Assembly (NCBI GenBank): GCA_031422435.1 | Contig: JANPLU010000082.1 | Coordinates: 1-43,154, forward strand | Source: Acaryochloridaceae cyanobacterium VAR_48_metabat_390 | Lineage (GTDB): Bacteria > Cyanobacteriota > Cyanobacteriia > Thermosynechococcales > Thermosynechococcaceae | DNA: 43,154 nt | Direction: 5' to 3' | In this document: positions 6,396 through 32,650 of the stretch, one piece after another | Layout: each line of letters starts with the position of its first letter | Numbering within the stretch: the first letter of the stretch is position 1 | The notes under the pieces: model-generated | Told to the model about the DNA's origin: nothing | What the model saw: the letters and a program-made list of their open reading frames with translations, nothing else | Database searches by the model: none | Program-made: the position numbers and the translations under genes

Positions 6396-7051
6396 GCTCA
6401 CCACTTGCGCGAATTGCAGTTCATTCTAGAGCGCTCTGGGCAATGATGGGCTTATCAGCTTCTACTGCTGACAACGATTTTGTGCCAAGTCCAGACCGCC
6501 TCAGCGCCTGAGCAATATCATGCCTTTGAAGCGCAACATGCCGCAATTTTAAAGCAAGGATTTAAGGCCAATCCGATACCCATTCCTCTGGCGGATGTCT
6601 TTAGAATAAGAGGGCGTCCTAAGCGCTCTGTTCCCCACCACCTTTTGGAGCGGCTACGCCCTCAACAAGCTGCCGTGCTCGGTTTTATGGATGACTTTAA
6701 GGTGCCCTTCGATAACAACCAAGCCGAACGCGATCTACGCATAGTAAAACTCAAGCAGAAAATTTCTGGGTGCTTCCGCTCTGATGACAGGGGTGAGATG
6801 CTTTGTCGCATTCGGGGCTACGAGATCGACCTTACGCAAGAAAGACCGCAATCTCTTGAATTCGCTCATTGGCTTATTTTCGGGAAATTCCGACTCTCTC
6901 ATCCCTAGTTCTATAGGATTCCGTATGCAAATGTTTATGAAAAACATTTTGGAACTATATGAAAGGGCTGAAAGCCTTAAAAACACGTTTAAGCTCAGCA
7001 AACTAGCATGGTGAATCCTGAAGAGCCTCATCTCTCATCCTAAGTAGTTAC
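6396..7051 (+). mobile_element. IS66-family remnant (3' part of transposase pseudogene plus right end)
   Basis: AHHLRELQF from 6396; in-frame TGA at 6444; [26 protein letters not shown]; +1 frameshift near 6822 continuing STLRK; terminal CCTAAGTAGTTAC (7039-7051) matches IS66-type GTAAC... ends. Confidence 0.85.
6907..7027. mobile_element. 121-bp MITE, ISL3-like, nested in the IS66 end
   Basis: Imperfect terminal IR AGTTCTATAGGATTC vs reverse complement GGCTCTTCAGGATTC; 8-bp flanks TCATCCCT (6899-6906) / TCATCTCT (7028-7035). Confidence 0.65.
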
Positions 7052-15956: not shown

Positions 15957-16655
15957 ATGCCTAAAGCCCCTATCACCCAAGGAAAGCTTAAGAAAATGAT
16001 GGCGCATCTCAATCCTGAACGTTATCTTTCTAAGCCTCAAGTCAACAGAAGCGCTGGGCTATCAACAGATCAAAAAACAACTCAAAAGTTGAGGCATGGC
16101 TTTACCAATTGGAAAAACCGATTTCTCATTCCTCTTGAAATTCTCTGCATTCCCTGGGCGCAAGAGATTCTTGACACACTATTTTTTCAAGGACGGTGGA
16201 ATCTAGTCGTTTATCCCAGATCCGTCGAGGGAATCCCTGGTATTTTTCTATCAGCCTTCTCTCACTCCGGCTGGGGACACCTCATCGGCAACAGTATCGC
16301 CTTCACAATCTTTAGTTGGTTAATTCTTGTCAAAAGCGTAAAAGACTTTTGGATTACTTTTGTGCTGGGATGGATTGGCGGAGGCTTTGCCTGTTGGCTG
16401 CTTGGGCCACAGGCTGCTCATGGACTAAGCGGGGTCGTTTATACGCTGTTTGGCTATCTACTGGTGATTGGGTGGCTTGAAAAACAATTTCTGCCGCTGC
16501 TCATTTCAGCCTTTGTGATGGTCAATTTTAGCTATGTGGTCTGGGGCATTTTCCCGACGGATTCAAGAATTGCGTGGTGGGGACATCTGTTTGGCTTTTT
16601 GCTCGGCGTATTTTCGGCCTATGGCATTTATCGTGAGCCAAAAGCGCATACTTAA
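15957..16655 (+). CDS. Rhomboid family intramembrane serine protease
   Basis: H-GWGHLIGN, GLSG (GxSG), WWGHLFG. Confidence 0.9.
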   Translation: MPKAPITQGKLKKMMAHLNPERYLSKPQVNRSAGLSTDQKTTQKLRHGFTNWKNRFLIPLEILCIPWAQEILDTLFFQGRWNLVVYPRSVEGIPGIFLSAFSHSGWGHLIGNSIAFTIFSWLILVKSVKDFWITFVLGWIGGGFACWLLGPQAAHGLSGVVYTLFGYLLVIGWLEKQFLPLLISAFVMVNFSYVVWGIFPTDSRIAWWGHLFGFLLGVFSAYGIYREPKAHT

Positions 16656-18025
16656 TCAAATTGATGCTTAATGCTCGTCAGATCTGCATAAATAGTCGTG
16701 AATGAAGGCCGAAGAGCGGGAGTTGGGTTCATACAATTTTGCTGAATAAGGCGTAGCTGATCAATCGCCACTTGCTGAGACACGGAATCTTTTGCATCAT
16801 CATGATCTAGGTCGTAATGGTCTAGTAAGTCTTGCAACAAACAGCCAAAGGCTCTGACTTCGAGTTGTTCTAAGGCTTGTCCAGTCTCGATATCGTGTCG
16901 CTTATAAAAGGAGGCTGCGCCAAAATCACCTAACAAGCTGTCTCCCGCATCGTTGACCAGAATATTATGGGCATAGAGATCGCCATGCATAATGCCTTGA
17001 TGGTGTAGATGGGCAGCGGCGGCGGAAATCCCTAGCGCGATACGCAGGATAGAGACAAAGGAAAAGGAGGTATCAGGTGTGTAGGTATCTCGAATGCAGG
17101 TTTCAAGGTTAGGGGGATTGCCCAAATTTTTATAGTCTGGTGGAATTAAGGAAAGTAATAGCCCTGCTTTTTGCTCAGGGTGATTCTCGATCTTTCCTAA
17201 CACATTGACGAGATTGGGGTGCGCCCCCGCTGCGATGTACGCCTGCATTTCATCTTCAGGGCTTCCGTCACTCGTAATGTCACCCTTGAAAATTTTGACA
17301 GCAACCGTATTAGCTTGGGTGGATGTGACCTGCCATAATGCTTTAGAAATAACGCCAGATGCACCTTCTCCAAGGGTCTCTTCGAGGGCTAAATCAGCCC
17401 AATTAATGGGGGAAAGCGGCGATGGCTTCGCACCAAGAGTACGCAGTTCTGCGGTGCCTTCACAAAATGGATTACTCGCATAGGCCAGCCATGACAACCG
17501 AGGCAGCGCAAGCAACCAAGACGGTAGCGTAGTAAGGCGATTCGCTGAAAGCCTAATCAGCTCTAAACTTTGGCAATTCTCCATTTCTTGCGGCAAAGAT
17601 TTTAAACGATTCCCTGCTAACATCAGCTTCTGCAATTTGCTGAGATTGCCGATGGTTGGCGGAAGCTGCTCAATCTGGTTATTGGTGAGGATTAACCAGC
17701 GAAGCGTGGGAGATAATGCTTGATCGCTGATATGCCGAATTTGGTTAGATTTGAACCCAATGATGCTGAGTTGAGGACATTGGGCTAGAACCTCTGGAAT
17801 TTCTTCAAACTCATTATTGACAAAGAAAACGGCCTTTAGGTTTTTTAAGCGTCCAAAGTCATCGGGCAAAGACTTTAGAGCATTATTGGATAAATCTAAA
17901 ACTTCTAACGAATCTGCCAAATCTAAAACTTCTGCTGGGAGGTGAGTTAACCCGCAGTTGAGCGCAAGTTTTTGAGTACCCACTAGCTGACCCGTTTGCA
18001 GTAGGTTGAGCGTTTCTGTCGTCAA
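16652..18025 (-). CDS. Leucine-rich repeat protein kinase family protein
   Basis: About six LxxLxLxxNxL repeats, then LGEGASG, VAVK, HGDLYAHN and GDFG. Confidence 0.92.
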   Translation of the reverse strand: MTTETLNLLQTGQLVGTQKLALNCGLTHLPAEVLDLADSLEVLDLSNNALKSLPDDFGRLKNLKAVFFVNNEFEEIPEVLAQCPQLSIIGFKSNQIRHISDQALSPTLRWLILTNNQIEQLPPTIGNLSKLQKLMLAGNRLKSLPQEMENCQSLELIRLSANRLTTLPSWLLALPRLSWLAYASNPFCEGTAELRTLGAKPSPLSPINWADLALEETLGEGASGVISKALWQVTSTQANTVAVKIFKGDITSDGSPEDEMQAYIAAGAHPNLVNVLGKIENHPEQKAGLLLSLIPPDYKNLGNPPNLETCIRDTYTPDTSFSFVSILRIALGISAAAAHLHHQGIMHGDLYAHNILVNDAGDSLLGDFGAASFYKRHDIETGQALEQLEVRAFGCLLQDLLDHYDLDHDDAKDSVSQQVAIDQLRLIQQNCMNPTPALRPSFTTIYADLTSIKHQFD

Positions 18026-18638: not shown

Positions 18639-21293
18639 TCAGTGCCGCAAATGCTTAAGCCATTTTTCAGGCAGCGGGAGTCTGAATCGATCAGAAGAAT
18701 CCTGAACCGCCGTAGATTGACGGCGCTGCTCTAGCACCTGTAAGTGGTTTCGCAAAATTTCTTTCTGCTGCATGAGTTTGCGGCGCTGACCAATCAACGT
18801 TTCGTCTAAAAGACGCTTTCGCTCTTCTTCGTCTACAAGCTGCACTTCTAAACTCAGACGCTCATACTCGCTAGCAGCATGGCGATGATATTCACCAGCA
18901 GCATTAAGCTTTTCGTGCATTTCACGCACCGTTTGGGACTGTAGACTGAGTTCTTCTTCTTGTTCTCTGACCAAACGGGCAGATTTAATCCAGTCTTTCT
19001 GGAGGGTTTCGACCGTGCCCTGAAGCTGATCTAGGGGCATCTGTTCCAAGGCATCACTTTGATGGACTGGCGAAAGGTCAAAGTCTAGAGGAAGCGATGC
19101 CTCGAGGTAATGGGGAGAGGCCGACATCGCCGCGACCGGATCCTCTGGGGCAATATGGGGAGAGGCCGCAATGAAATAATAGGGATCCGGTTCATGAATA
19201 GGCTGCACCTGATTTAAAACCAGCCCTAGAAATGGTTTGCCAATTTGAGCTAGTACCTGCCGTGCAAAATCGGCGCTGTCCGTATCAAGTTTGCCAGGTT
19301 GTGCCACCAGAAGAACGCCATCTACAAGCTGGGCAAGACGCACCGTATCGGTGCCAGTTTTAAGAGCAGCCGTATCTAAAATTACGAAGTCGTAATGGTT
19401 GGATAGATTGGCAAGCAGAGCAACCATTTGATGAGAATCTAGGTTAGATATTGCCTCACTCTCAGGCTTACCTGAAAAAATTAAATCTAAGTTAGAGAAA
19501 ATGCGCTGGACAGCAGAGTGCCAAGGCTTTTGATTCGCCAAAATATCGCTTAGCCCCACCTCAGCCGACCAAGACCAAATATATTGCTGCACAGAATCTT
19601 GAAAATTTGCTTCTACTAAGATGACTGAGTGCCCATGGTGCGCTAAGGCGATCGCCAAATTTGCGGCAACGGTCGAAGTTCCTTCTTGCGCTAAGGTACT
19701 GGTTACAGCCAGCACCTTTTGCCCTTGACCCAAAGACTGTAGGTTGCTGCGCAGCAACCGATAGGCTTCGCTCACCTTATGGTGGGGAAAGTCTACCAAA
19801 TACAGACGTGGCACTGCGCCTTCAGCCGTTCTGCGATGAAACAGTGAAAACTGCTGCTGTCCAAACAAGGGAATTACGCCCACGATGGGCAAATTGAGCC
19901 GCCGTCGTACTTCATCTACCGTTCGCAGAGATTTATTGAAAGATTCAAGGCCGTACAGCGTCAGAAATGCCAGCACAGCTCCCAGAATAAATCCTGTGGC
20001 AGCGTAGAGAGATTTACGAGGCGCACTAGGCAGCTCGGGAATCACCGCTTCCGCAATAATTCTGGCGTTGCCTTGAGCTTGATTAGACGCCACCTGCGTT
20101 TCCTGAAGTTTTTTCAGAAGGGTGCCATAGGAATTTTGAGCCACGTCTAGCTGACGCTCCAGAGCATTCTGCTGCTGCTCTAGAGTGGGGAGCAGAGCCA
20201 CCTGCTGGCGGTAGGTCTTCAAGCTCTCTGATAGGGTCGAAATTTCTTGCTGAAGACCCTTTTGAGAGGCTTCGAGGCTCACCAGTTGCGCCGTAAGATC
20301 TTGTCGGAGTTTGCCAATCAGCGTATCTGAATCAATGGCGGTACTAGAACCTGAGATTTTGGCTGCTTTCTGGGCAAAGAGCTGTTTGAGATCCTCTAAA
20401 TTGCCCTTTAACGCCGCAACGCTAGGATGGGATTCTGTGAGGCGGTTCCGGTCTAACACCAGTTGAGACTGAGTCTGCTGAATTTTAGTGAGCAAATCCT
20501 GCACTTCTGGAGATTGACTCAACGAAGAAAGGGCAACAGCCTGCTGTGGACTAATGCCTAGCTTCGCCGTTATGACACCTTCTTGTGCTGAAGTATTGGC
20601 GAGCTGAGATTGGGCATCGGCAATTTGCTTCTGAAGTCCGTCAATGCGAGCTTGGGCAGACGTAACCTGCTCTTTTAGGGTGAGGATCTGATAGGTTTGC
20701 TTAAACTGACGCAGCTTACCCTCGGCAGTCTCGACCTGCTTTTTGGCAGTGGGGAGCTGATCGGCAATAAATTGGCGGGTGGCATTCACTTCTCCTTGGT
20801 TCGAGCGAACCCCGCTCTGCAAGTAAATCTGCATCAGGGTGTTAACCGCCTGTGCTGCCTTTTTAGGGTCGCGGTCTTTAAATTCAATCTGAAGAATATC
20901 CGCGTCTTTGACGTGGTTTACGCTTAAATTTTCTAGAAATTCTGCGGTGCCAAACGGTTTTCCATCCGGCAAAGTCCAGTGCAGCTGCTGGAGGGTTTTT
21001 TCAATAATGGGCTGAGACTGAATCACCTGGGTCTCCGTCAGCAGAGGATTGCTCGTCTCAGTGACCGAGTCCATTTGATCGATGCTTTTACCCAGATCGG
21101 TCAAGGATGAAACGGGGTTTTCTCGATTGAGCTTGAGCTTGCTTTCGGCGACAAATGTCGGGCTTTGGATGTAGGCAAGAACGATAGACAGCCCTAGAAC
21201 AGAGAAAAAAACGGCTCCAGCAGGTAGCCAATGATATTTTAAAAGCTTTCGATAATCGCTGAAGCCGACGGGTAGCGCACTTGGAGTTTCCAT
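18639..21293 (-). CDS. Wzc/GumC-type polysaccharide co-polymerase with degenerate BY-kinase domain and C-terminal coiled-coil extension
   Basis: Two TM segments around a periplasmic coiled coil; SEAYRLLRSNL; VTS-x4-EGTST (Walker A K>T); YDFVILDT; GLVLN; about 180 extra C-terminal residues. Confidence 0.9.
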   Translation of the reverse strand: METPSALPVGFSDYRKLLKYHWLPAGAVFFSVLGLSIVLAYIQSPTFVAESKLKLNRENPVSSLTDLGKSIDQMDSVTETSNPLLTETQVIQSQPIIEKTLQQLHWTLPDGKPFGTAEFLENLSVNHVKDADILQIEFKDRDPKKAAQAVNTLMQIYLQSGVRSNQGEVNATRQFIADQLPTAKKQVETAEGKLRQFKQTYQILTLKEQVTSAQARIDGLQKQIADAQSQLANTSAQEGVITAKLGISPQQAVALSSLSQSPEVQDLLTKIQQTQSQLVLDRNRLTESHPSVAALKGNLEDLKQLFAQKAAKISGSSTAIDSDTLIGKLRQDLTAQLVSLEASQKGLQQEISTLSESLKTYRQQVALLPTLEQQQNALERQLDVAQNSYGTLLKKLQETQVASNQAQGNARIIAEAVIPELPSAPRKSLYAATGFILGAVLAFLTLYGLESFNKSLRTVDEVRRRLNLPIVGVIPLFGQQQFSLFHRRTAEGAVPRLYLVDFPHHKVSEAYRLLRSNLQSLGQGQKVLAVTSTLAQEGTSTVAANLAIALAHHGHSVILVEANFQDSVQQYIWSWSAEVGLSDILANQKPWHSAVQRIFSNLDLIFSGKPESEAISNLDSHQMVALLANLSNHYDFVILDTAALKTGTDTVRLAQLVDGVLLVAQPGKLDTDSADFARQVLAQIGKPFLGLVLNQVQPIHEPDPYYFIAASPHIAPEDPVAAMSASPHYLEASLPLDFDLSPVHQSDALEQMPLDQLQGTVETLQKDWIKSARLVREQEEELSLQSQTVREMHEKLNAAGEYHRHAASEYERLSLEVQLVDEEERKRLLDETLIGQRRKLMQQKEILRNHLQVLEQRRQSTAVQDSSDRFRLPLPEKWLKHLRH

Positions 21294-21557
21294 TGAAGGG
21301 TCTATTCGGAAGGGTTAGATATTCTGGAAATAATGAGACTGAGCTGACGCTTACCCCCGCGCCCCACCCTAAGCGCGTAAGCACTTAATTCAACCCCTAA
21401 AATTGATGGGTTAGCTGTGGGCTTACTATTTGAATATTTAAAGGTGACACCATTCTACCGAAGCCGTCTAAGATTGTCGCTGAATTGTTGTAAAAATGCG
21501 ATTATGCTTTGCCTCAGTCAAGTCGGCTAACCCATTTAATACAGCAGCTTATCTAGA

Positions 21558-22697
21558 TTATTGCGCCTTCTTAAGAACATCGGTGTAGATATCATCATGC
21601 AGACGCAAAATGTGGGACACATCGTACTGCTGAACCTGTCGACGACCCTGAATTCCTAAGTTTTTACCGGCTTCAGGATGATCGATAATCCAGGCCATTT
21701 CTGCCGCAATTGCGGCACTATCACCCACGCTCACCAGTCTGCCTGCACCCTCTTTGAGAAGATCCTCAGTGCCGCGAATTTTGGTGCCAATGACAGGCAC
21801 GCCCATTGCCATGGCCTCCATCACGCTACGCGGGAGTCCCTCCTGCTCAGAAACGAGCAGTGTGGCGGCTGCGGCAAAGATCCAACGAGGAATATCGCTA
21901 CAAAACCCTAGAAAGTGTACCTGCTGGGCAATGCCAAGCTGAACCGCCAGGGTTTTAAGGGCTGGCGCTAGAGGGCCGTCCCCTGCCAAGACCAGATGAG
22001 CGTTGGGGCGCTGAAGCTGCGCTAAGGCCAGCAGCAAATCTTGATGGCGTTTACGGGGGATGAGTTCTGCGATCGCCAAAAACACCACATCTTCAGATAT
22101 CAGACCCAACTGCGCCCGAACCTGAAGGTGATCGGCTTCAGTGAAAGATAGGGCGCTGTAGTAGCTCAAATCTAGGCCAATACCAGGGGTGTAGCAAAGC
22201 TGGGGGGCTGGTACCAGACGATGCCTGAGGGCAGCATTTTTGTCTTCTTGGTTAATCACAATCAGGCGATCGCACCAGCGTCCAGCCCATTTTTCTAGGG
22301 TTAAAAACACGCGGTTTCGCAGCCATGAGCCATTGCGGTGAAAGTGAAACCCGTGGGCGGTATAGATCACCTTTAGCTTACCCTGGCGACGTAAAGCCCG
22401 CAGCGCAAAGCGAGTTACAAAGGCCGCAACGGGGGTATGGACATGAATTAGGTCGTAGGACGCGGCGATCGCCCGTAAGCGCTGGGGTGCCCCCACAAAA
22501 TTGAGGGGGCTGAGGGGGTTACGCGACCACTCCACATCCCAAACCTGGTGGAACGACGCAACGCAGGCAGGGCAACCTGAAATACCTTGCGCCATCGCGT
22601 CTACGGTCCAGCCCTGGGCGCGATAGTGGTCTGCCCAAGGCAGCAAGAAGCCACGAATGGTTTCAGAGACAGTAGCAACCACTAAAAGACGCGTCAT
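21558..22697 (-). CDS. Glycosyltransferase family 4 (EpsD/PglA-like)
   Basis: IHVHTPVA, IYTAHGFHF, EGLPRSVMEAMA (Ex7E). Confidence 0.93.
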   Translation of the reverse strand: MTRLLVVATVSETIRGFLLPWADHYRAQGWTVDAMAQGISGCPACVASFHQVWDVEWSRNPLSPLNFVGAPQRLRAIAASYDLIHVHTPVAAFVTRFALRALRRQGKLKVIYTAHGFHFHRNGSWLRNRVFLTLEKWAGRWCDRLIVINQEDKNAALRHRLVPAPQLCYTPGIGLDLSYYSALSFTEADHLQVRAQLGLISEDVVFLAIAELIPRKRHQDLLLALAQLQRPNAHLVLAGDGPLAPALKTLAVQLGIAQQVHFLGFCSDIPRWIFAAAATLLVSEQEGLPRSVMEAMAMGVPVIGTKIRGTEDLLKEGAGRLVSVGDSAAIAAEMAWIIDHPEAGKNLGIQGRRQVQQYDVSHILRLHDDIYTDVLKKAQ

Positions 22698-22736
22698 CGG
22701 GGTACAAAATCCTTGAGATTTGCTGCGTTTGCCATT

Positions 22737-23951
22737 TTAATTCCCGTGAACCGACGTTGGGTGCTGCAATAGCCAAGCTTCGGTTTGCTGCCGTAAAGCC
22801 TTATAAAAAGCCGTCCGTCGGCCTTGAATGCGGTCTTCTTGAAAGTCATGCGCTCGCGTTAGATTACGGGCAGACATCTGCGATAAACGGTCAGGATCTG
22901 TAACCATTTCCTGAATTTTAGTTGCCAAGGCCAAAGCATCTGCTGGCGGCACCAAATCCTCTGAAGGCAGCAGTTCTGGCATACCGCCAACGATAGAACC
23001 CAGACAAGGCAACCCCCGCGCCATAGCCTCTAGCATGGCGCGAGGTAGCCCTTCTTGACGAGACGGCAACACAAAGAGATCGGCCTGATCCAACTGCTGC
23101 CGCACCGCTGGTCCTGTGGTCAACTGCCCCAAAAAATGACAGCGATCGCCAATCCCAAGCCGAGCCGCTTGCCCCTCTAACATCGGTCGGTACCCCCCAT
23201 CTCCCACCAACACCAGCTTTAGGTCTAGTCCTTGACCCACGCAAAGGGCGATCGCCTCAATCAGAATATCCTGAGCCTTGTAGAGCTGAGACATTGCCCC
23301 CACCGTAATGAGCGTCCAAGCGCGCTGGTTAGCCACTGCCGTCCGTGGCTGCTGCACAAACACCGGATCGGGCAGCTCAGCCATTGAGTAATGGGTTGTA
23401 AAAGCCGTGGGCGAGGGCGGATACTGCTGCTGAAGCGCAGCCTCTGTAATGTAGGCCGCAGCACTGGCTCGTTGACAAAACGATCGCAACTGCCGCGGCG
23501 CAAGCCATCGAAAGAAGGGGCGGGTCCAACTGCGCACCGCTCCTGGCGAAAAGACGTCATAAGGGTTTGCAATTACATAGATTCCGTAGGGGTAGCCCAA
23601 CGGTCGCAATCTCTTTTCAATCGCCAAAGCCGTAGGAAAGGCAGAGTAAAACAGTACCGCATCCCCCACCTTAAAAGCATCCCGAGCCGCTGCCCGAACC
23701 TGTCGTTGCCGCTGAAAATACTCCCAAGGCCCCAGATAGTAGGGCAGCGGCTCCACCGAAATAGCGCCCGTATTGACCTGAACCCAGTCTGGCGATGCCT
23801 GCGCCACCGGACGCACCCGAGCTGCAACCTTGACCTGATCAAAAACCTCCAAATACCGACTCCAGTAAGAGGGCGTAAACATCGTTTGAGTCCAAATTGC
23901 GCCATCAGGGGTGCCATCAAAACGATGATCGGTTGTGACTAATACACGCAT
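22737..23951 (-). CDS. Glycosyltransferase family 4
   Basis: YKAQDILI, DLFVLPSRQEGLPRAMLEAMARGLP. Confidence 0.92.
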   Translation of the reverse strand: MRVLVTTDHRFDGTPDGAIWTQTMFTPSYWSRYLEVFDQVKVAARVRPVAQASPDWVQVNTGAISVEPLPYYLGPWEYFQRQRQVRAAARDAFKVGDAVLFYSAFPTALAIEKRLRPLGYPYGIYVIANPYDVFSPGAVRSWTRPFFRWLAPRQLRSFCQRASAAAYITEAALQQQYPPSPTAFTTHYSMAELPDPVFVQQPRTAVANQRAWTLITVGAMSQLYKAQDILIEAIALCVGQGLDLKLVLVGDGGYRPMLEGQAARLGIGDRCHFLGQLTTGPAVRQQLDQADLFVLPSRQEGLPRAMLEAMARGLPCLGSIVGGMPELLPSEDLVPPADALALATKIQEMVTDPDRLSQMSARNLTRAHDFQEDRIQGRRTAFYKALRQQTEAWLLQHPTSVHGN

Positions 23952-23954
23952 TAC

Positions 23955-25199
23955 TTATCTCAAGGCCTCATTAATCTCATAAATCTGAACCGCTTTAGGC
24001 GGTAAACTCAAGCGCAGCTTTACCCCAGAAAGCTGCTGAGCCACTGGCGTTTGGTACAGCGGCTGGATCGATTTGATCTGTATCCAAGACCCCTGAACAA
24101 ACGCGGGTTCACTTTGCTGAGTGGAGGTGTTGACCACCACTAATAAGTGGCGTTGATTCAAAGTCCAGATGCCGCCTTTAAGGTTCGTTCTTGGAAAGCT
24201 TAGAAATCGATAGCTTCCCTCTAAAAACCACGGGGCTAAAGATTTTACCTGCTGATTTAGGGTTTTAATCTCTTGCCATAGCTTCGGATGATCGGGCAGG
24301 TACCAGGTATCGTCATAGTAGGTATAGTACAAAATCCCCTTTGCTCCACCCAAAAGCGTCTGATAAGTCATATTGCGCATTTCAGACCCATCAGGCGCAC
24401 TTCCCTGCTGTCCTGGCTTAGCGGTAGACCAAGCAAAGGCCTGTAAATTAGCAAAGAGCACGCCTTGGGGGCGACCCAACACAGCCTTAGCAGTCTCAGC
24501 CATGTCTATAGAGACACTAGACAGCTCAGCGGTGGTGTGTCGGCGAATGGGATAAGATTGCCGACCCACAATATTGGCGCATTGGGCAAACTGCGATAGC
24601 CCCTTTGAGTAACCGCTGATATAGGTTGGGTGGTTGGGGTCAGCGGCGCGGATTTGCCGATGCAGGCTCAACACCTGGGCGGGAGTCCACCTGCCATTAT
24701 CCACATCATCGGCGAGATTCCAGGCCAAAATAGCCGGCTCATTCTTAAAGCGCTGCACAAAGGCTACGGGGTCAAAATGGTGTTCACTAATGACAGAAAC
24801 ACCCAAAGCGTTAGCCTGACGTAAAAATCTTGCGTAAGACTCCCAATCCTTCGCCGAGGCGTGAACCACATTAAAGCCTGCGGCGGCTATTTCTCGAAGA
24901 TGCTGGCGTTGAGTGGCGGGGGAAGCATCCCAAGAAACGTGGTACAGCCCCAAGGGGAAAAATGAACGTCGATTTTTGAGCAGTACACCATCAGACCGAA
25001 TAGATACCTTATGGAAAGGGGGTGACGCAGCACAGTTAAGCAGCGGGAAGAGCGGTAGACCTAGCCAGAGACCGCTGCCGAACATCAGGACTGCTGCAAT
25101 CTTGCGAACAATGGGTGGGACTACGGGTTGGATCATCTTTGGTCTGGTCATAAAGGTTCCCCTTGATTCAGTCGGCGTCGCTCCAAAGCAGTCACTCAC
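23955..25199 (-). CDS. Exported/anchored glycoside hydrolase-like TIM-barrel protein
   Basis: N-terminal hydrophobic segment; FFPLGLY, AAGFNVV, PAILAWNLADD, DPNHP, GAKGILYY. True start may be about 25151. Confidence 0.6.
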   Translation of the reverse strand: MSDCFGATPTESRGTFMTRPKMIQPVVPPIVRKIAAVLMFGSGLWLGLPLFPLLNCAASPPFHKVSIRSDGVLLKNRRSFFPLGLYHVSWDASPATQRQHLREIAAAGFNVVHASAKDWESYARFLRQANALGVSVISEHHFDPVAFVQRFKNEPAILAWNLADDVDNGRWTPAQVLSLHRQIRAADPNHPTYISGYSKGLSQFAQCANIVGRQSYPIRRHTTAELSSVSIDMAETAKAVLGRPQGVLFANLQAFAWSTAKPGQQGSAPDGSEMRNMTYQTLLGGAKGILYYTYYDDTWYLPDHPKLWQEIKTLNQQVKSLAPWFLEGSYRFLSFPRTNLKGGIWTLNQRHLLVVVNTSTQQSEPAFVQGSWIQIKSIQPLYQTPVAQQLSGVKLRLSLPPKAVQIYEINEALR

Positions 25200-26478
25200 G
25201 CGCTGGACGATACAGCATAATGCCCAGAGACAGCAGGTAAGCTACGGTCAACCCGCGCCCTAAAGAGCCAAACATGCTTTCTGCCATCGAAACAGTCCAA
25301 AACATCAGGCTAATGAGCAAGGGGGCGATCGCATAGGGATTCACCCCAGCCTGTGCCTGAAAGTAGCGATAGGCGGAATAAAGGCTTAGCAGCGCGATTA
25401 TCGTCATCAGATAAAAAGCGATTAAACCACTCTGACCTAAAATATCAATGAGCGAGTTATGTCCCCCCAGATCAAAATTTTTCAGAAAATAGTCATTACT
25501 GCCGTAGCCAAACAGCCGCGTGTCTTCAAAGGTTTTTTGCCAGATATAGCTGCGACCATTAAAGGCATCGCCCGCGTCTAGTTTATCGGCATACCCTCGT
25601 TCTAAACTGGCCCACGGGTCAACAGTCTGCACCCAATAGAGCGAAGTGACGCCGAGGAAACCCATCCCAAATAGCAGTGTCCGTGCCAAGGTGCGGGGAT
25701 ATTGAAATGCCCGAATCACAGGATAAAGTGCGAATAAAAGTCCCAGTAGGCTTCCTAATAAAGCTGTCCGAGAATTAGAAAATACGATCAGCACAAAGCT
25801 CACAACAATCAATCCACTAAGACCCATGATTTTAATAGCTCTAGAGGGTTTAGCAGGGTCTAGCAAGGTTTTATTAAGCAAAATCAGCAGGCCGCAATTA
25901 ATCGTTAAAATCGTCACGCCCAATTGATTAGAGTTACTAAAAATACCCGTGTAGGGAAAGGTCGTGGGGGGAGCCTGCACCACGGACAAAATCCCATAGG
26001 GTAAATGTCCTAAAACTAAACCCCAAGCCATAACGGCCTCAAGGGAACGTCCCATTGCTCGCGGCAGCACATAAAAAAAGAGGCAAGGCACCCCCAATAA
26101 AAACCAAACGCCATCAGAAAGCGCTTTTGCATTTTCATTCACCACCCCAGACAGCATGACCACAGTCCCAAACCCAAGCCACACCCACAGCAGCAGGGAA
26201 ATACTGTGCTGAGTGGAAGGGACAGGCCTTAGAAAGGCGATCGCCATCAAAACCACCAGGGGAAGACCCACTAGCCCATACCGCACCCGAAACCAGATCG
26301 GGTCAAGGGGGTGACTGGTACTCCCTAACGCCACAATAGACGCGCCGCCCATCAGCATTGCCATCAGCACGACTAACGCCATAAAGCCGAGACCAGAAGG
26401 CGGTTGAGGCAAAGAACGTTCGGTACTAGGGTACAAATTCTGCATCAGTAAAACCCTAAACGTGGGCAGCGCGGGCAT
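25192..26478 (-). CDS. Wzy polymerase / O-antigen ligase family membrane protein
   Basis: About 10-11 TM segments; GIFSNSNQLG, SNSRTA, GRSYIW, G-G, HNSLID-L-G. Confidence 0.85.
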   Translation of the reverse strand: MPALPTFRVLLMQNLYPSTERSLPQPPSGLGFMALVVLMAMLMGGASIVALGSTSHPLDPIWFRVRYGLVGLPLVVLMAIAFLRPVPSTQHSISLLLWVWLGFGTVVMLSGVVNENAKALSDGVWFLLGVPCLFFYVLPRAMGRSLEAVMAWGLVLGHLPYGILSVVQAPPTTFPYTGIFSNSNQLGVTILTINCGLLILLNKTLLDPAKPSRAIKIMGLSGLIVVSFVLIVFSNSRTALLGSLLGLLFALYPVIRAFQYPRTLARTLLFGMGFLGVTSLYWVQTVDPWASLERGYADKLDAGDAFNGRSYIWQKTFEDTRLFGYGSNDYFLKNFDLGGHNSLIDILGQSGLIAFYLMTIIALLSLYSAYRYFQAQAGVNPYAIAPLLISLMFWTVSMAESMFGSLGRGLTVAYLLSLGIMLYRPARE

Positions 26479-27643
26479 AAAGATCGGCGAGGAGCGGTAC
26501 GGAATTTTCCATGTTAAAGGGGCTTTGTCGAACCAACGCTAGGGTTGTTTCAACGGACTGACGAGGCGTACCTTGGGCGTGGGCGATCAAGGCATTGGCC
26601 CAGTCAGCGCTGGATTGCTCCAGCGATAAGCGTTTCACCAGGGTTGGAATCAGATCGGCTTCTGGCGGGACTGCCGTTGATATAACGCAGGGCAGCCCAG
26701 CGACCTGAGCCTCAAGCAGCGCTACGCCTAAACCCTCATGCCAAGACGGAAACAAGAATAGATCAAACGCGCCTAACAGCAGGGATGGGAGATCTGACTG
26801 TACGCCTGTAAAGATCACGCGATCGCCAATGCCTAACGCCTTAGCCTGCCGCTCAGTTTCAGAGCGCAGAGAACCGTCCCCCACCAGCATGAGATAGGTA
26901 TTAGGGCGTTGATGCATCACGATTGCCGCCACCTCAACCAAGAAACGATGATTTTTCTGGGGTTCAAAGCGACCCACATGTCCTATCACCCAAGCGTCAG
27001 CAGGAATATTCCAGGCTTGACGTATCGCACCAGGAGAGACGTTGGCTTCCAAAGGCGTTAAATCTAGCCCACAGTAAATTACCTGAATTTTGGGATTAGT
27101 GACCCATGCAGAGCCAAATAAATCTACGGCTGCCCTAGTACTGGTGGCTAACCCGTGGGTTGCCGCTTGCCTAACCCAATATTTCATCAGCTGACGATAC
27201 CTTTGCCGCAGCCAGCTTTTTTGAGACTCTACTTCACCGTGATCATTGTGGCTATGGGCGATGCGATAGGGAACTTGGGCTGATTGAGCCAGTTTGAGGA
27301 CGTATCCACTAAAAAAGTGAACGTGGGAATGCACGATATCATAAGGGCCTTGCTCTCGTAAAATTCGCTTAAACTCAGCCGCGTAGATCCAGGGTCGAGA
27401 CACATAGGGACAGGGAAAGATCCGACACCCCAAGGCGCTGACCTCTGCATCATAGGCTCCAGGTTCGAGAGCATGAACCAAAATATCAACCTGAAATCGT
27501 CTCAGGTCAAGGCGTTGCAGAACCCGAACAATCCAAGTTTCTAGCCCAGCGCAATCCATTCGTCCCACGACGTGCAGCACTCGAATGGGTTCTCGCGTTT
27601 CGTCATCATGAGGCATCTTTGCAAACGCTCCCAATCCCTGCAT
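26456..27643 (-). CDS. Glycosyltransferase family 4 (EpsF/CapH-like)
   Basis: IRVLHVVGRM-GLET, RIAHSHN, GHVGRF-QKNH-FL, FPSWHEGLG-LEAQ-AGLP; likely start about 27616. Confidence 0.92.
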   Translation of the reverse strand: MQGLGAFAKMPHDDETREPIRVLHVVGRMDCAGLETWIVRVLQRLDLRRFQVDILVHALEPGAYDAEVSALGCRIFPCPYVSRPWIYAAEFKRILREQGPYDIVHSHVHFFSGYVLKLAQSAQVPYRIAHSHNDHGEVESQKSWLRQRYRQLMKYWVRQAATHGLATSTRAAVDLFGSAWVTNPKIQVIYCGLDLTPLEANVSPGAIRQAWNIPADAWVIGHVGRFEPQKNHRFLVEVAAIVMHQRPNTYLMLVGDGSLRSETERQAKALGIGDRVIFTGVQSDLPSLLLGAFDLFLFPSWHEGLGVALLEAQVAGLPCVISTAVPPEADLIPTLVKRLSLEQSSADWANALIAHAQGTPRQSVETTLALVRQSPFNMENSVPLLADLYARAAHV

Positions 27644-28502
27644 CCTGGGCAGTCCGAATCTCTGGAAAGTATTGATGCATCAGTTCCTGACAATATTGAT
27701 GGGCTGTTTCCTCTAGAAAAGCTCGATCAATTTTAGACAGCAGATTAAATTTTTGAGTAGAATTTCTTACATTTTTATGAATATTTCTAGGAAGACTATT
27801 TTGAGGAATATTTATAAAATCTTCAACTTTAGACAAGTCCTGATCGAGATTTTGAGTCTTTATGATGAGAAGCCTATCTTTAGGTATGGTAGATATAACC
27901 TTTTGATTATGTTCAGCCCAATAGGAAAAGTATCCGTGTAGGGTATATAGGTAGTGATCTGAAAGTATCCTTTCTTCCTGAGTGTGCTGAAATTTATTTG
28001 CCTTAAAAATATGTTTATTGTATCGGATCCATTTTCTGTTCTGGAATTCTCTTCTATGGCCTAAGTCACGATAAATGGGAAGATAATGATTAATGAGAGA
28101 ATCTAACCATGAATAGCAGTCTCGTATTGTCAAAATAAATTTTGCATCTTCATATTCATTCAGCAGAATATCTAATAAAGGATAGTTAAGATGCGAAGTA
28201 TCCATCTCTAGGCCTAGTCTTCGGTCTCGATGTTTTAGATAATGGATCAGCGCATTCTGATGGCTCCTCCCTTCAAAAAAATCTAATATTTTTTCAAGGA
28301 GGAGACTCGCTTCTGGCTCATGTTTTGAGCGGTACTGCTGGCTAAAAATTGCCCCTATGGTCGTCGTCCCAGTCTTAGGCGCACCGACACAGTAAGCTCT
28401 AAACTTTAAATCTTTCGCTTTGAAAGTCCAAGGTGGCAAAGCATTTTGAAGTCTGGGGATGCCCCAGACAGCTACTTTATCAATTAACTCTGGGTAGTGC
28501 AT
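27606..28502 (-). CDS. PAPS-dependent sulfotransferase
   Basis: 5'-PSB loop VGAPKTGTTT and 3'-PB motif KFILTIRD-YSWLDS. Confidence 0.85.
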   Translation of the reverse strand: MHYPELIDKVAVWGIPRLQNALPPWTFKAKDLKFRAYCVGAPKTGTTTIGAIFSQQYRSKHEPEASLLLEKILDFFEGRSHQNALIHYLKHRDRRLGLEMDTSHLNYPLLDILLNEYEDAKFILTIRDCYSWLDSLINHYLPIYRDLGHRREFQNRKWIRYNKHIFKANKFQHTQEERILSDHYLYTLHGYFSYWAEHNQKVISTIPKDRLLIIKTQNLDQDLSKVEDFINIPQNSLPRNIHKNVRNSTQKFNLLSKIDRAFLEETAHQYCQELMHQYFPEIRTAQDAGIGSVCKDAS

Positions 28503-28516
28503 ACTTTAGAGGGCAG

Positions 28517-29821
28517 TTATTTACAACGCGATTGAACATCAAAAGCGGTTTTAGTTGGGTTATGCCACAGCGCATGAGCCAACACAACAAGGCATAGTAA
28601 AGTCCGAACGACATTCGCCAAAATTATGGCAAACGCAATGCCGTTAAGACCCCACAGGGGAATGCAGTAGAAACAGGCGATCGCCAATAGGCTAGCGGTA
28701 CAGATAAACAGCGGCACCTGGCTGCGAAAGTATCGAGCAGAGGTCATTGCGGTGCCTAAAAAGGATGCAACATAGTCTAAAGCCGCTGCGACCATAAGCC
28801 AAACCAGCAGGTCAGCATACTGGGCATACTCAGGCTTGTAGACTACCGTTAAGATTTGCGCTCCGGCAATCTGAGTAATGGCGATCGCCCCCAAACCCAG
28901 TCCAAGGGCAAGGCTAATGAGCTTGAGCAATAGGCTTGCAAATGCCCTACGGTTTCCCTCTGCATAGTATTTTGCCAGCCTGGGTGAGGCGGCTTGAGCC
29001 ATCGCTCCCTGGATAATAGAACCTACTAACATCAGGTAGGCGATTGCCGCAAAAATGCCGAGATCCCGAGGGCTAAGGTAATGCTCAATAAAATAGCGGG
29101 GAATGTTGGTATTGAGCGATACCAAAAACATTACAAACCCCAAGGGCAGCGTCAGCAAGATCAGCTTGCGCTGCGTCGGCCAATGATAGCGCGGAGACAG
29201 GTGCCGACGCGCATTACGCAAGCTACCCATCACACCCAGTCGGTGCACAGTCGGCAAGTCATAGCTAAACAGCAGTAATAGCCAAGCCAGCGTCAACCCA
29301 ATCATGCCCCCTAAAACTGTTTTTGAAATCACGACGCCCATCGACAGCATGACTAAAGACAGTAGTCCTTTCAAAATCAGAGAAATGGAGATAAAGTCCA
29401 TGCGCTCATGCTGCTGCGCTAGACCATAGCAAACATCGCTCACAGACTCAATGGCTTTAGCAAGCCCCATTAAAACTACCGCAAGGGCAATTGAAGGAGG
29501 GCTAAACAGCAGACCAGCCATCCCAATTAGCACCGCTAACGCAGCACCCGTTGAGGTTAACCGTAGCCCTAGGTAGTCATTAAAAGAGTATTGGGACTGG
29601 ACATCCGTTGCCTGTACAGATCGTAGCTGAAGATTGGTGAACATGAATACAGGAGCGGTCACCGCTAAGGCATAGGTAAACTCGCCAACCATTTCAGGAG
29701 TACCCAGTTTTGCTAGCACAATCAGCATTCCCCACTGGCAGGCCGAGTAAACAACATTGCCCGCCATCGTCCAGGAAAAATTTTGTAAAAGAGAAAAAGC
29801 AATCGGCGGCGGCGGCTTCAT
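28517..29821 (-). CDS. Wzx oligosaccharide flippase
   Basis: NFSW-GN-Y-CQW, about 12 TM segments, LNTNIPRYFI-LGIF; located in the EPS cluster. Confidence 0.9.
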   Translation of the reverse strand: MKPPPPIAFSLLQNFSWTMAGNVVYSACQWGMLIVLAKLGTPEMVGEFTYALAVTAPVFMFTNLQLRSVQATDVQSQYSFNDYLGLRLTSTGAALAVLIGMAGLLFSPPSIALAVVLMGLAKAIESVSDVCYGLAQQHERMDFISISLILKGLLSLVMLSMGVVISKTVLGGMIGLTLAWLLLLFSYDLPTVHRLGVMGSLRNARRHLSPRYHWPTQRKLILLTLPLGFVMFLVSLNTNIPRYFIEHYLSPRDLGIFAAIAYLMLVGSIIQGAMAQAASPRLAKYYAEGNRRAFASLLLKLISLALGLGLGAIAITQIAGAQILTVVYKPEYAQYADLLVWLMVAAALDYVASFLGTAMTSARYFRSQVPLFICTASLLAIACFYCIPLWGLNGIAFAIILANVVRTLLCLVVLAHALWHNPTKTAFDVQSRCK

Positions 29822-29824
29822 AAC

Positions 29825-32650
29825 CTAGTTTAAGCACTGGCTCTGCAGCAGCACTTCAGCCTGTTTTCCCTCAATCGGCCGCAAGAAGAAATATCCCTGA
29901 CCGTATTTGAACTTCAGGGTTTTTACTTGGGTAAGCTGCTCAGAAGACTCAATTCCTGTTGCAATCATGTCGAGTCCACAGGTTTCAGACAGGTGCACAG
30001 CCTTCTCAAAAAAGTCGAGGTTATCTAGCTCTTGAGACAGCTCATGAATCCGGGAGCGATCAATCTTAAACCCATCAAATACATGCACCCAGTCCATGAG
30101 AGGCGATAAGTGCGTCAATGGCGAAAGCCCAAAGTTATCGAGGAACAGCCGCACCCCAAGCCCCTTCATTTTTAAGAGCGTTGCGATCGCCCCCTCCGGA
30201 TGCTGAGCAACAAACTGTTCAGGAATCTCAAAACATAGCCGAGCCACATTGACTTGAGTGCTTTGAAAAATAGCGCTTAGGTTTGAAATAAAATCAGGAT
30301 GCAGAAGCTGAGACGTAGACCAGTTAACGCTAATAGTGAAGCTAGGGTGGAGATTAAGCGCTTCAAGCGTACACATCTGCACACAAACCTCACGCATTCC
30401 CCATAGACCAATAGCGTGAATGCGCTGCGTCTGATCTGCCGTTTTGATAAATTGGCTAGACGGCATCAGCCCGTGCCGTGGATGCTGCCAATGCAGAAGC
30501 GCCTCAAACCCCGTTACTACATACTCTTTCTGAAGCAGCAAGATGGGCTGATAGAGCACCTTAAAATCTCGAAGTACCTCAGCAGTAGAAAGCTCTTGCG
30601 CCAGTTTATGACCATCGATCAGACTTAAAGGTGGACTCAGCGGCATGGGGCGGCTTACATCTACCCGTCTTCTATGGCGCTTTGAGGGTTTAGTCTGGGC
30701 AAGATCAAGTGCCTGCTGCGTCGGAAAAATACTTGAAACAGAATCTGACTGGAACCCTGGGATCAAGCGCTTAACGCAAAAGCGAATCATAGCTTCGTTA
30801 TGATCTAACGCTGCCTTAAAGAGCGATCGCAGGCCCACCTCTAGATGGGGCGGTACTTGAGCATAGGCATCTTGAACCACAACCAAATTCTCGTTTGCCG
30901 TAGGCTCATAAAACTCATCGGCAAGAAATAGCTCTTCGTGGAGTTTTTCGCCAGGTCGTAGGCCAGTATAAACAATCTCAATCTCTGAATCCACCTCATA
31001 CCCAGACAGCCGAATTAGATCTTGAGCCAAGTCCACAATTTTAATGGGGTGGCCCATATTCAGCATAAAAATTTCGCCCCCCTGGCTCATCACCGTGGCC
31101 TGCAAAACCAGATGAACCGCCTCAGGAATCGTCATAAAATACCGTGTCACCTCAGGATGCGTAATCGTCACTGGTCCACCTCGCTCAATCTGGCCTTTCA
31201 AGGTGGGGACAACGCTTCCTCGGCTACCCAAAACATTCCCAAATCGCACCACGCAAAACTGCTTTTGCTTCTGCTGTGCCGCCTTGAGAACAATCAGCTC
31301 ACCCATCCGTTTGCTAGCCCCCATCAGGCTAGTCGGGTTTACCGCTTTGTCGGTTGAGATCATCACTAACTGGCTGATATTGTGCGCCAGCGCCACATCC
31401 ACCAAATTTTGGGTTCCCAAAACATTATTCATAATTGCTTCAGGTGGGTTTAGCTCCATCATCGGCACATGCTTATGCGCCGCCGCATGAAAAACCACTT
31501 CAGGCCTAAATCTCCGAAAGGCGTAGTCTAGACGAACATGATCTTTGAGATCTGCAATTAAAACGCTCAGGCGAATCGACAGGTGAGGCTGAGTCGTTTT
31601 CAGCACCTGCAGCACCTGGTTCAGCTCCTGCTGAATCAAGAACACAGAATTTTCGCCATGCCCCATCAGAATTAACTCTGCCGGATGGCACTGAAGCACC
31701 TGACGACAGATCTCACTACCAATAGACCCTCCCGCCCCCGTCACCAAAACCCGCCTAGACCGCAAATTCGGGGCAACGCCCTCTAAATCTGAGCAAATGG
31801 TGTCTCGGCGCAAAAGGTCTTCAATCTTGACGTCCCTCACGCTTCGGGGGTTAACGGTGCCGTTAATAATTTCATGAATGCTGGGTAGCGTGCTAGTCGC
31901 AATACCGTAACTTTGACACATCTGCACAATCTCACGAATGGCTGCTCCACCCGCCGAGGGAATCGCAATAATGACTCGTTTTATCTCAAGGCTCACCGCC
32001 AAATCAGGAAGCTGCGCACGAGAACCCCGTACCGAAATACCCCGAATCTTAAGGTCGAGCTTTTTAGGATCATCATCTACAAACGCGATTGGCTCTAGGG
32101 TAGAGCGTCCACCCTGTCGAATCGCCTCAACCAGAGCCACCCCAGCACTTCCTGCACCGTAGATAATCACCCGTTCACGAGCCTGTATTGAACGTCGCTG
32201 ATGCCGCGAATTTTCAAACGCTTTAACGCTAAAGCGCACTGCCCCAACGCCAATAAAGGTCAATAGCCCATCCAATAGAGGGAAAGACCGAGGCAGCAGA
32301 AAAATATCTGAAACGCTGAAAAGAGACATGACTGAGAGAATCATGCTCTCTAGCAAACTAATGGAAGCGCAGGCCGCAGCAATTTCGAGCAGATTTTCAG
32401 TACTCGCAAATCGCCAGCAGCCCCTATAGCACCCTAAGACAGCCAGACATACAATTTTTAAAAGTATGAATACAGACAGAGACAGAATAAGGCCATAAGC
32501 AAAACTTCTGATTAAAAGCCAGTCATCTAAGCGCAGCCACAGAGTCAAGAATGGCGTACAGGTAAATATACAAATATCGGCAATGAGAAAATTAAAATTT
32601 TTTAACTTTAAAGCGCTTTGACAAAGCTTAAGAAACATTGCTTTTAGCAT
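29825..32650 (-). CDS. CapD/PglF/WbpM-type UDP-N-acetylglucosamine 4,6-dehydratase fused to a degenerate EAL domain
   Basis: 4 TM segments, YGAGSAG, TGAGGSIGSE, HAAAHKHVP, STDKAVNP-MGASK, RFGNVLGSRGSV, GLRPGEKLHEEL; then YQPI...FEALLHW-HP...KIDR...GQGYFF. Confidence 0.93.
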   Translation of the reverse strand: MLKAMFLKLCQSALKLKNFNFLIADICIFTCTPFLTLWLRLDDWLLIRSFAYGLILSLSVFILLKIVCLAVLGCYRGCWRFASTENLLEIAAACASISLLESMILSVMSLFSVSDIFLLPRSFPLLDGLLTFIGVGAVRFSVKAFENSRHQRRSIQARERVIIYGAGSAGVALVEAIRQGGRSTLEPIAFVDDDPKKLDLKIRGISVRGSRAQLPDLAVSLEIKRVIIAIPSAGGAAIREIVQMCQSYGIATSTLPSIHEIINGTVNPRSVRDVKIEDLLRRDTICSDLEGVAPNLRSRRVLVTGAGGSIGSEICRQVLQCHPAELILMGHGENSVFLIQQELNQVLQVLKTTQPHLSIRLSVLIADLKDHVRLDYAFRRFRPEVVFHAAAHKHVPMMELNPPEAIMNNVLGTQNLVDVALAHNISQLVMISTDKAVNPTSLMGASKRMGELIVLKAAQQKQKQFCVVRFGNVLGSRGSVVPTLKGQIERGGPVTITHPEVTRYFMTIPEAVHLVLQATVMSQGGEIFMLNMGHPIKIVDLAQDLIRLSGYEVDSEIEIVYTGLRPGEKLHEELFLADEFYEPTANENLVVVQDAYAQVPPHLEVGLRSLFKAALDHNEAMIRFCVKRLIPGFQSDSVSSIFPTQQALDLAQTKPSKRHRRRVDVSRPMPLSPPLSLIDGHKLAQELSTAEVLRDFKVLYQPILLLQKEYVVTGFEALLHWQHPRHGLMPSSQFIKTADQTQRIHAIGLWGMREVCVQMCTLEALNLHPSFTISVNWSTSQLLHPDFISNLSAIFQSTQVNVARLCFEIPEQFVAQHPEGAIATLLKMKGLGVRLFLDNFGLSPLTHLSPLMDWVHVFDGFKIDRSRIHELSQELDNLDFFEKAVHLSETCGLDMIATGIESSEQLTQVKTLKFKYGQGYFFLRPIEGKQAEVLLQSQCLN

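Follow-up and report, generated by a model that had tools for sequence, protein, structure and literature searches.

The window described here is the full 43,154-nucleotide stretch of contig JANPLU010000082.1 from the Acaryochloridaceae cyanobacterium VAR_48_metabat_390 (GCA_031422435.1). Its minus strand carries a gene for a polysaccharide co-polymerase of the Wzc/GumC type (class 2a, PCP-2a), the C-terminal tail of which is related to the centre of HmpF, a cyanobacterial protein found with type IV pilus motors, which it activates. The co-polymerase itself accounts for residues 1–706 of the 884-residue protein. The features of the gene are as follows.

18639–21293, minus strand: whole gene, one open frame encoding an 884-amino-acid Wzc/GumC-like polysaccharide co-polymerase (PCP-2a type) with an HmpF-core tail
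21168–21224, minus strand: first membrane segment, residues 24–42 (Kyte-Doolittle value 2.04 over 19 residues; modelled helix 9–42)
20004–21167, minus strand: periplasmic co-polymerase domain, residues 43–430, between the hydrophobic segments, with long helices in the model and the GNVR region at its end
19947–20003, minus strand: second membrane segment, residues 431–449 (hydropathy 1.93)
19176–19769, minus strand: cytoplasmic P-loop domain resembling bacterial tyrosine kinases (BY-kinases), residues 509–706, from the TIGR01007 match; catalytic motifs degenerate
19677–19679, minus strand: codon of T539, at the Walker A lysine position by alignment to solved E. coli Wzc chains
19059–19175, minus strand: tyrosine remnant (Y705, Y706) and Pro/Ala/Ser-rich disordered linker, residues 707–745, poorly conserved
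18693–19058, minus strand: HmpF-core module, residues 746–867 (helix 746–750, helix 754–801, turn, helix 807–864), from NF038350, BLASTP and the model
18876–18890, minus strand: hairpin turn YHRHA, residues 802–806, within an 8-residue insertion relative to HmpF; a turn in the model
18642–18692, minus strand: disordered C-terminal end, residues 868–884
18639–18641, minus strand: stop codon TGA

The body of the protein is of the PCP-2a kind, with two membrane segments around a periplasmic helical GNVR domain, a P-loop of the BY-kinase family and a locus of the Wzx/Wzy type. In the Pfam scan, GNVR matches residues 373–445 (E 4.4e-13) and Wzz matches residues 27–104 weakly (E 0.054). The tyrosine-autokinase model TIGR01007 covers residues 509–706 with 123.7 bits against a cut-off of 108.05. 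The closest solved relatives of the body are E. coli Wzc chains (E ~1e-26); S. aureus CapB chains also align. The hydrophobic segments at residues 24–42 and 431–449 place the tail in the cytoplasm.

An extra C-terminal segment at 18718–19055 had been singled out in the original prediction, where its likeness to HmpF was pointed out. The segment corresponds to residues 747–858, and the stretches quoted for it (LEQMPLDQLQGTVETLQKD, VREQEEELSLQSQTV, ASEYERLSLEVQLVDEEE, LDETLIGQRRKL and ILRNHLQVLEQRR) are all present. The likeness is specific. Searched alone, the tail matches NCBIfam NF038350 (taxis_HmpF) with E 1.6e-32 and 112.6 bits, at profile positions 332–445 of 553 only; with the whole protein as query, the match covers residues 746–867 (E 6.5e-31, 107.3 bits). 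The next-best family is at E 0.011, and the SMC coiled coil at E 0.11. BLASTP aligned the tail with residues 324–427 of the genome's own HmpF at 42 identities in 112 positions (38%; E 1e-18, composition adjusted), and the consensus sequences of HmpF and of the Wzc tails have QEEEL-x-LQ and ETL-x-GQRR in common. These profile and pairwise matches establish genuine homology between the tail and one part of HmpF. The same early description had called the segment a coiled coil; here it did not hold, as the model gives a helix-turn-helix (754–801 and 807–864) and not a generic long coiled coil.

A chance coiled-coil likeness, or a fusion leftover without function, would be the deflationary account of these matches. 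Coiled coils often match spuriously, a Pfam scan of the tail yielded nothing significant (best E 0.035, in a Pfam copy that lacks PF28019), and neither the tail nor the whole protein reaches the 200-bit equivalog cut-off of NF038350. However, a match spanning only one fifth of the model should score in this range, and the distance between E 1.6e-32 for HmpF and 0.11 for SMC argues against chance. In precomputed domain lists, the newer Pfam family PF28019 is placed on HmpFs and on these Wzc proteins. Evidently, then, the core is covered by a Pfam family, and databases display the architecture even if no description of it has been given.

According to the available part of PMC12288463, pilus assembly requires HmpF, the molecular function of which is described as unknown; the protein travels to the leading pole and binds Hfq and PilT. 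It co-precipitates PilB, and its homologues self- and cross-interact across species, a property ascribed by the authors to a conserved region (PMC7002697, available part). The genome of the window encodes a separate, intact full-length HmpF (contig C8, L001:1405–3120, minus strand; 502 bits to NF038350 against the cut-off of 200), as the original prediction had wished to see established. An AlphaFold model of this protein, built from a 60-row alignment (mean predicted local distance difference test, pLDDT, 83), shows an N-terminal beta domain (1–70), long helices at 72–177 and 207–313, a compact helix pair (331–375 and 378–426) flanked by non-helical breaks at 314–330 and 427–437, and a last long helix at 438–569. 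Of these parts of HmpF, only the helix pair has a counterpart in the Wzc tail. Among 58 stand-alone HmpFs, scored without five DevB-type fusions that have no N-terminal domain, two blocks are conserved, residues 17–120 (3.06 bits) and 325–428 (2.94 bits), compared with 2.2 bits for positions outside 324–427. The helix pair is not the single most conserved block, the N-terminal one being slightly higher. It is the central two-helix core that is present in the tail; the conserved N-terminal block (residues 17–120, with the beta domain and the first helix) is absent from it. Residues ~92–110 and ~352–370 of the genome's HmpF, in the N-terminal block and the core respectively, both have a QEEE[IL]...Q..[IL]...EL helix start, a possible sign of an internal repeat, or of a pair of helices that bind the same kind of partner.

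The tail is set off from the kinase-like domain by residues 701–745, rich in proline, alanine and serine, with pLDDT below 50 for 702–744 in the model. The core module is modelled at pLDDT ~78–88, and values fall below 50 again for 863–884. The 8-residue insertion at the turn of the Wzc tail appears as a gap in HmpF in the BLASTP alignment. YHRHAASEY is kept at 70% or more in the consensus of 37 distinct sequences among 41 Wzc tails; the insertion is missing from HmpF, from Stanieria-type tails and from protein P0058. The motif holds two tyrosines and two histidines. A basic end motif, WLKHLRH, is common to the closest relatives only.

The fusion is not confined to this genome. With the tail as query, 58 proteins were found, 32 of them Wzc-like (646–924 residues, with GNVR and P-loop), 21 HmpF-sized and 5 other (DevB-type). 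Among 1.84 billion representative proteins, 168 match the tail at E <=0.001; within the best 150 of the 168, 16 are Wzc-sized (789–920 amino acids) and match at their C-terminal end, and the 13 of these that were scanned have the P-loop in every case and GNVR in 10. Wzc-like proteins with the tail number 54, from at least two cyanobacterial orders, with Altericista sp. CCNU0014, a Thermosynechococcaceae metagenome genome and Stanieria sp. NIES-3757 as named carriers. In a phylum sample of 401 genomes, tail matches occur in 139, and the window's own genome is the only one in which the match lies in a Wzc-sized frame. Within the window's order, represented by a single family and surveyed at a threshold of 1e-3, an HmpF-sized match is found in 48 of 48 genomes, and the tail in a Wzc-sized frame or a contig-end fragment in 15 of 48. 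By genus, the fusion is present in 9 of 10 genomes of the window's genus, 4 of 9 of a second and 1 of 1 in each of two others; the remaining ten genera have none (0 of 27). Full-length HmpF is also kept in all 10 genomes of the window's genus. Restriction of the fusion to one genus, as it seemed at 1e-25, is ruled out by the four genera at 1e-3. This survey, together with the many metagenome proteins, meets the worry about an assembly artefact that accompanied the original prediction: the frame is continuous in several genomes, one of them a single contig, and an artefact is ruled out. Further tail matches were seen in G421 (C58:2776–3138 and C96:36491–36808), G432 (C228:9012–9359) and G425 (C79:3060–3470). 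Their frames, of 236 (with one TAA), 503, 665 and 849 amino acids (with one TGA), are neither clearly HmpF nor clearly Wzc; they could represent disrupted copies or proteins of a different architecture.

The tail is more conserved than the body it is attached to. Identities of tail, body and linker to six relatives are 89/80/46, 80/71/26, 60/59/22, 58/41/22, 61/41/27 and 59/40/29%, so that in all six the tail is ahead of the Wzc body and the linker drifts (22–46% against 58–89% for the tail). No numerical ratio of nonsynonymous to synonymous substitution is given, because synonymous sites are saturated against all six (proportion of synonymous differences 0.65–1.0). Judged from these identities, the tail is under selection. 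The reading of the tail as a leftover or a chance match is contradicted by this pattern of conservation and by the recurrence of the tail in so many Wzc proteins of more than one order, and it is regarded as very improbable.

Phylogenetic analysis gives some indication of the history of the fusion. In a tree of the core (125 rows by 125 columns, quick method), 54 of 54 Wzc tails lie on one side of a branch with a Shimodaira-Hasegawa-like approximate likelihood-ratio (SH-aLRT) support of 80, which is not strong, and the adaptor proteins described below, which bear the core as a head, require at least two origins. In a smaller core tree, 40 of 41 tails stand apart from all HmpFs (SH-aLRT 98) and do not fall inside the HmpF clade of the genus. 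In a tree built on the Wzc bodies, 27 of 28 fused proteins and a single non-fused one cluster (support 85), this assemblage forming two well-supported groups (99 each), one with the window protein and the other with the Stanieria protein; one fused protein lies elsewhere on a long branch. Read most simply, these trees, made from a short alignment, suggest that a single ancient fusion gave rise to a Wzc subfamily and that adaptors acquired the core separately. A recent origin of the tail from the resident HmpF is ruled out, the tail being nearer to HmpFs of other families (46–52%) than to its own (38%) and lying outside the HmpF clade of the genus. The word "captured", in so far as it meant taken from the resident HmpF, is not borne out. 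By its sequence relationships, the group is best described as a subfamily of Wzc that has taken over a module from HmpF.

The kinase-like domain of the window protein is degenerate. Aligned to solved E. coli Wzc, its Walker A reads EGTST with T539 in place of the lysine, and its Walker A' reads E561-A-N563-F-Q565 instead of D-x-D-x-R, with both aspartates gone; the Walker B aspartate (D640) is retained. The deposited E. coli chains have methionine at the Walker A lysine position, because they are of the K540M variant. The window protein thus has neither an intact Walker A (GK[ST]) nor an intact Walker A' (DxDxR), and it lacks the C-terminal tyrosine-rich phospho-acceptor cluster, which is cut down to Y705-Y706. 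Among 45 non-fused homologues, 44 end 18–36 residues past the equivalent of residue 700, mostly with a tyrosine-rich cluster (such ends are common in the set, e.g. SYGGYYYSKGYYG), and one ends there. From these motif losses, tyrosine autokinase activity is predicted to be absent or very weak, and the window protein looks like a pseudokinase of the Myxococcus EcpK kind. The losses vary across the subfamily: position 539 is lysine in 26, threonine in 14 and isoleucine in 1 of 41 fused relatives, and the second Walker A' aspartate is asparagine in 33 of 41.

Both Wzc and the DevB-type adaptors considered below belong to families of ring-forming oligomers. The tails (eight in a Wzc ring) or the heads (six in a DevB-type ring) might do no more than bundle with one another, holding the oligomer together or gating it in place of the tyrosine-phosphorylation cycle and having no connection with HmpF or pili. 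Wzc depends for its function on cyclic assembly of its oligomer, and there are PCP-2 systems that use BY pseudokinases and do without phosphorylation (EcpK/EpsV of Myxococcus xanthus; PMC12004946, available part). A protein without its Walker A lysine and with only two tyrosines remaining would fit such a scheme, as would the self- and cross-interaction of HmpF homologues in two-hybrid tests (PMC7002697, available part). However, the lysine is present in most fused relatives (the 26 of 41) and the tail is conserved equally well in them, so that its role cannot simply be to make up for an inactive kinase. Over such an evolutionary distance, moreover, a helix of a generic bundling kind would have no need of the HmpF-specific QEEEL and ETLxGQRR. 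Self-association as the sole function is rather unlikely on this evidence, and it shades into the docking proposal developed below, since a core capable of self-pairing should also pair with that of free HmpF.

A finding that goes beyond the original prediction, as does the degeneracy of the kinase motifs, is that the same core occurs on a second family of exporters. All 10 DevB/HlyD/RND-adaptor proteins tested (561–654 residues) have it at the N-terminus, matching NF038350 at E 3.5e-24 to 3.1e-43 over profile positions ~288–463. Eight of the 10 are over the DevB-family cut-off (membrane-fusion proteins of ABC exporters), one is over the RND-adaptor cut-off and one is just under that. In 9 of 10, a single hydrophobic segment follows the core. 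In the known membrane topology of such adaptors, the part ahead of this segment is cytoplasmic, and the adaptor core is therefore placed in the cytoplasm as well. In both host families, then, the module sits on the cytoplasmic end of the inner-membrane part of a trans-envelope export machine. The fused adaptors (P0035, P0037, P0039, P0041, P0044, P0136, P0181, P0193, P0194 and P0203) are mostly metagenomic. A second tail match was found in only 2 of the 401 genomes of the phylum sample, the window's own (its HmpF) and G214 (both HmpF-sized). Neither is an adaptor fusion, and such fusions therefore seem rare in cultured lineages.

A core attached to two or three unrelated exporter types would also suit a common input module. 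It could act as the receiver of a diffusible signal, from a chemotaxis-like system of the Hmp/Tax3 type or another source. The signal by which HmpF is moved onto and off the pilus motors would then act directly on the exporters too, with no contact between Wzc and HmpF. The standing of the core among the two conserved blocks of HmpF agrees with this. On the other side, no result obtained here places reception of the Hmp signal in any part of HmpF, and no chemotaxis-like gene lies within the window. The turn insertion of the Wzc tails is clade-specific, and their binding surface may therefore differ from that of HmpF. A receiver of this kind is considered distinctly unlikely.

The genomic setting is that of polysaccharide export. 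The fused wzc is the last gene of a same-strand exopolysaccharide (EPS) cluster of the Wzx/Wzy type, of which the upstream part is composed as follows.

21558–32650, minus strand: upstream EPS cluster, from the Pfam scan
29825–32650, minus strand: CapD/PglF-like dehydratase fused to an EAL domain (Polysacc_synt_2 E 4e-115; C-terminal EAL E 5e-44)
28517–29821, minus strand: Wzx flippase
27606–28502, minus strand: sulfotransferase, from the Pfam scan
26456–27643, minus strand: GT4 glycosyltransferase
25192–26478, minus strand: Wzy-like protein
23955–25199, minus strand: unknown 414-amino-acid protein
22737–23951, minus strand: further GT4 gene
21558–22697, minus strand: further GT4 gene

The gene order around the fused Wzc is shared with three other genomes of the genus. 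One relative (L062:6621–10788) has four extra genes directly upstream of Wzc, for a Bac_transf priming sugar transferase, a GT47-like protein, a FemAB/GNAT-like protein and a DegT aminotransferase; the corresponding stretch of the window (21294–21557) is without them. Where their functions are present in the window's genome, they are located elsewhere, including four Bac_transf genes. In a second relative, an unannotated gap of about the same length occupies this place. The sulfotransferase has no match in the compared loci of the six relatives. The dehydratase-EAL fusion is retained in two relatives and suggests an input of cyclic di-GMP into precursor synthesis. Elsewhere in the genome are its sole Wza gene, on another contig, and genes for PilB and PilT; there are four Wzc paralogues, and the tail is found on the fused one only. 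Two genes downstream of Wzc, at 16652–18025 on the minus strand, a 457-amino-acid protein combines N-terminal leucine-rich repeats with a kinase domain of the Ser/Thr/Tyr type, a combination that is eukaryote-like and unusual for a cyanobacterium. A 142-amino-acid fragment at 6480–6908 on the plus strand matches only the C-terminal end of an IS66-family transposase and is probably a remnant.

Taken together, these observations point to the tail as a cytoplasmic docking module that ties a Wzc-type exporter to HmpF or to its partners at the pilus base, a proposal to which a probability of roughly 0.45 is assigned; the binding is an extrapolation from homology. In this proposal, the flexible linker would display the two-helix HmpF module on the cytoplasmic face of the co-polymerase, where it would serve as a protein-docking device, either pairing with the core of free HmpF or binding whatever partner that core binds at the pilus base. 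The reported contacts of HmpF offer possible partners in Hfq and PilT (PMC12288463, available part) and in PilB (PMC7002697, available part). Polymerisation and export of polysaccharide would in this way be placed, or switched on, where and when pili are active. With the Walker A lysine, both Walker A' aspartates and most tyrosines lost, control through the tail may replace the usual phosphorylation cycle in the window protein. The adaptor fusions allow a broader proposition, that the HmpF core is a portable address-or-switch module plugging envelope exporters that bear it on their cytoplasmic end into the polarity system of HmpF and the type IV pilus, this Wzc subfamily serving exopolysaccharide and the DevB/HlyD-type adaptors serving ABC and other pumps; this is put forward tentatively and is doubtful as it stands.

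A joint fold of the tail with the core of the genome's HmpF, one of the checks suggested in the original prediction, lends weak support to the pairing. The score was 0.50 (runs 0.50, 0.56 and 0.34) against 0.00 for the best of three controls. The mark is one that 116 of 157 solved complexes reach, as do 2 of 215 mismatches; with scores of <=0.60 it is reached by only 18 of the 157 and by both passing mismatches. The three runs differ in their contacts (agreement of at least 0%), with partner pLDDT at least 72.

Several further points weigh against docking to HmpF or the pilus base. The tail is without the N-terminal beta domain of HmpF, possibly the portion that locates the pilus base, and the literature searched assigns no function to the HmpF core. 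The tails fall outside all sampled HmpF cores in the trees and have a turn insertion of their own, so that their partner may differ. HmpF is present in all 48 family genomes, fused or not, so that the link cannot be probed through co-occurrence; the fusion is lacking in one member of the genus whose genome is 100% complete; and next to the cluster the window has neither a pilus gene nor an hmp gene.

Pilus-driven surface movement needs secreted polysaccharide in cyanobacteria, Myxococcus and Pseudomonas. How pili and polysaccharide are coordinated is an acknowledged open question, and the working model for Nostoc stops at an unidentified protein to which the link from pilus activity to polysaccharide secretion is attributed (PMC9239167, available part). 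A co-polymerase bearing the conserved core of the pilus activator HmpF is a concrete and testable candidate for a direct link. If the broader proposition of a portable module were true, it would explain how gliding cyanobacteria physically connect polysaccharide secretion with the activity of their pili, the connection so far missing, and would give the conserved centre of HmpF a function; slime and other cargo would be secreted at the pole where pili extend and when they do so. Apart from that proposition, the fusion delimits a discrete module inside HmpF that is reused on at least two kinds of exporter. Ordinary tests would be open in the named strains, Altericista sp. CCNU0014 and Stanieria sp. 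NIES-3757, if these are culturable and tractable. In keeping with the original prediction, no description of an HmpF-Wzc fusion was found in the literature searched, the coverage of which leaves out subscription papers, the two main HmpF papers among them. The same literature contained no described fusion of HmpF with HlyD, no co-mention of HmpF with "tyrosine kinase" and no mention of PF28019.

Four known systems bear comparison with the window protein. Like E. coli Wzc (a PCP-2a BY-kinase known from octamers such as 7NHR and 9I2Q), it has two membrane segments, a helical periplasmic GNVR domain, a P-loop and a Wzx/Wzy locus; it differs in ~180 extra C-terminal residues (linker and HmpF core), in the change of the Walker A lysine to threonine and of Walker A' from D-x-D-x-R to E-A-N-F-Q, and in the reduction of the tyrosine cluster to YY. 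With HmpF of Nostoc punctiforme and its homologues Slr1301 of Synechocystis and Synpcc7942_1139, the tail shares the central two-helix block, QEEEL, ETLxGQRR and the predicted helix-turn-helix. It amounts, however, to about one fifth of HmpF, lacking both the beta domain at the N-terminus and the long helices on either side of the core, and it has the 8-residue turn insertion and a membrane protein as its host.

EcpK, as described in the available part of PMC12004946, likewise has a BY-kinase fold without catalytic residues and without most phospho-acceptor tyrosines, and has been proposed to act through protein-protein contacts. It is a stand-alone partner of a kinase-less PCP and has no HmpF-like module, whereas the degenerate domain of the window protein is fused to its PCP, and in the fused Wzc subfamily loss of the lysine is limited to 15 of 41 members. 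Finally, DnaK1/DnaJ3 of Nostoc punctiforme (PMC9239167, available part) address the same problem, the tying of hormogonium polysaccharide secretion to active pili downstream of HmpF. No evidence links the two systems: in the one, a chaperone acts on an unidentified client, while in the other the exporter itself bears a piece of HmpF.

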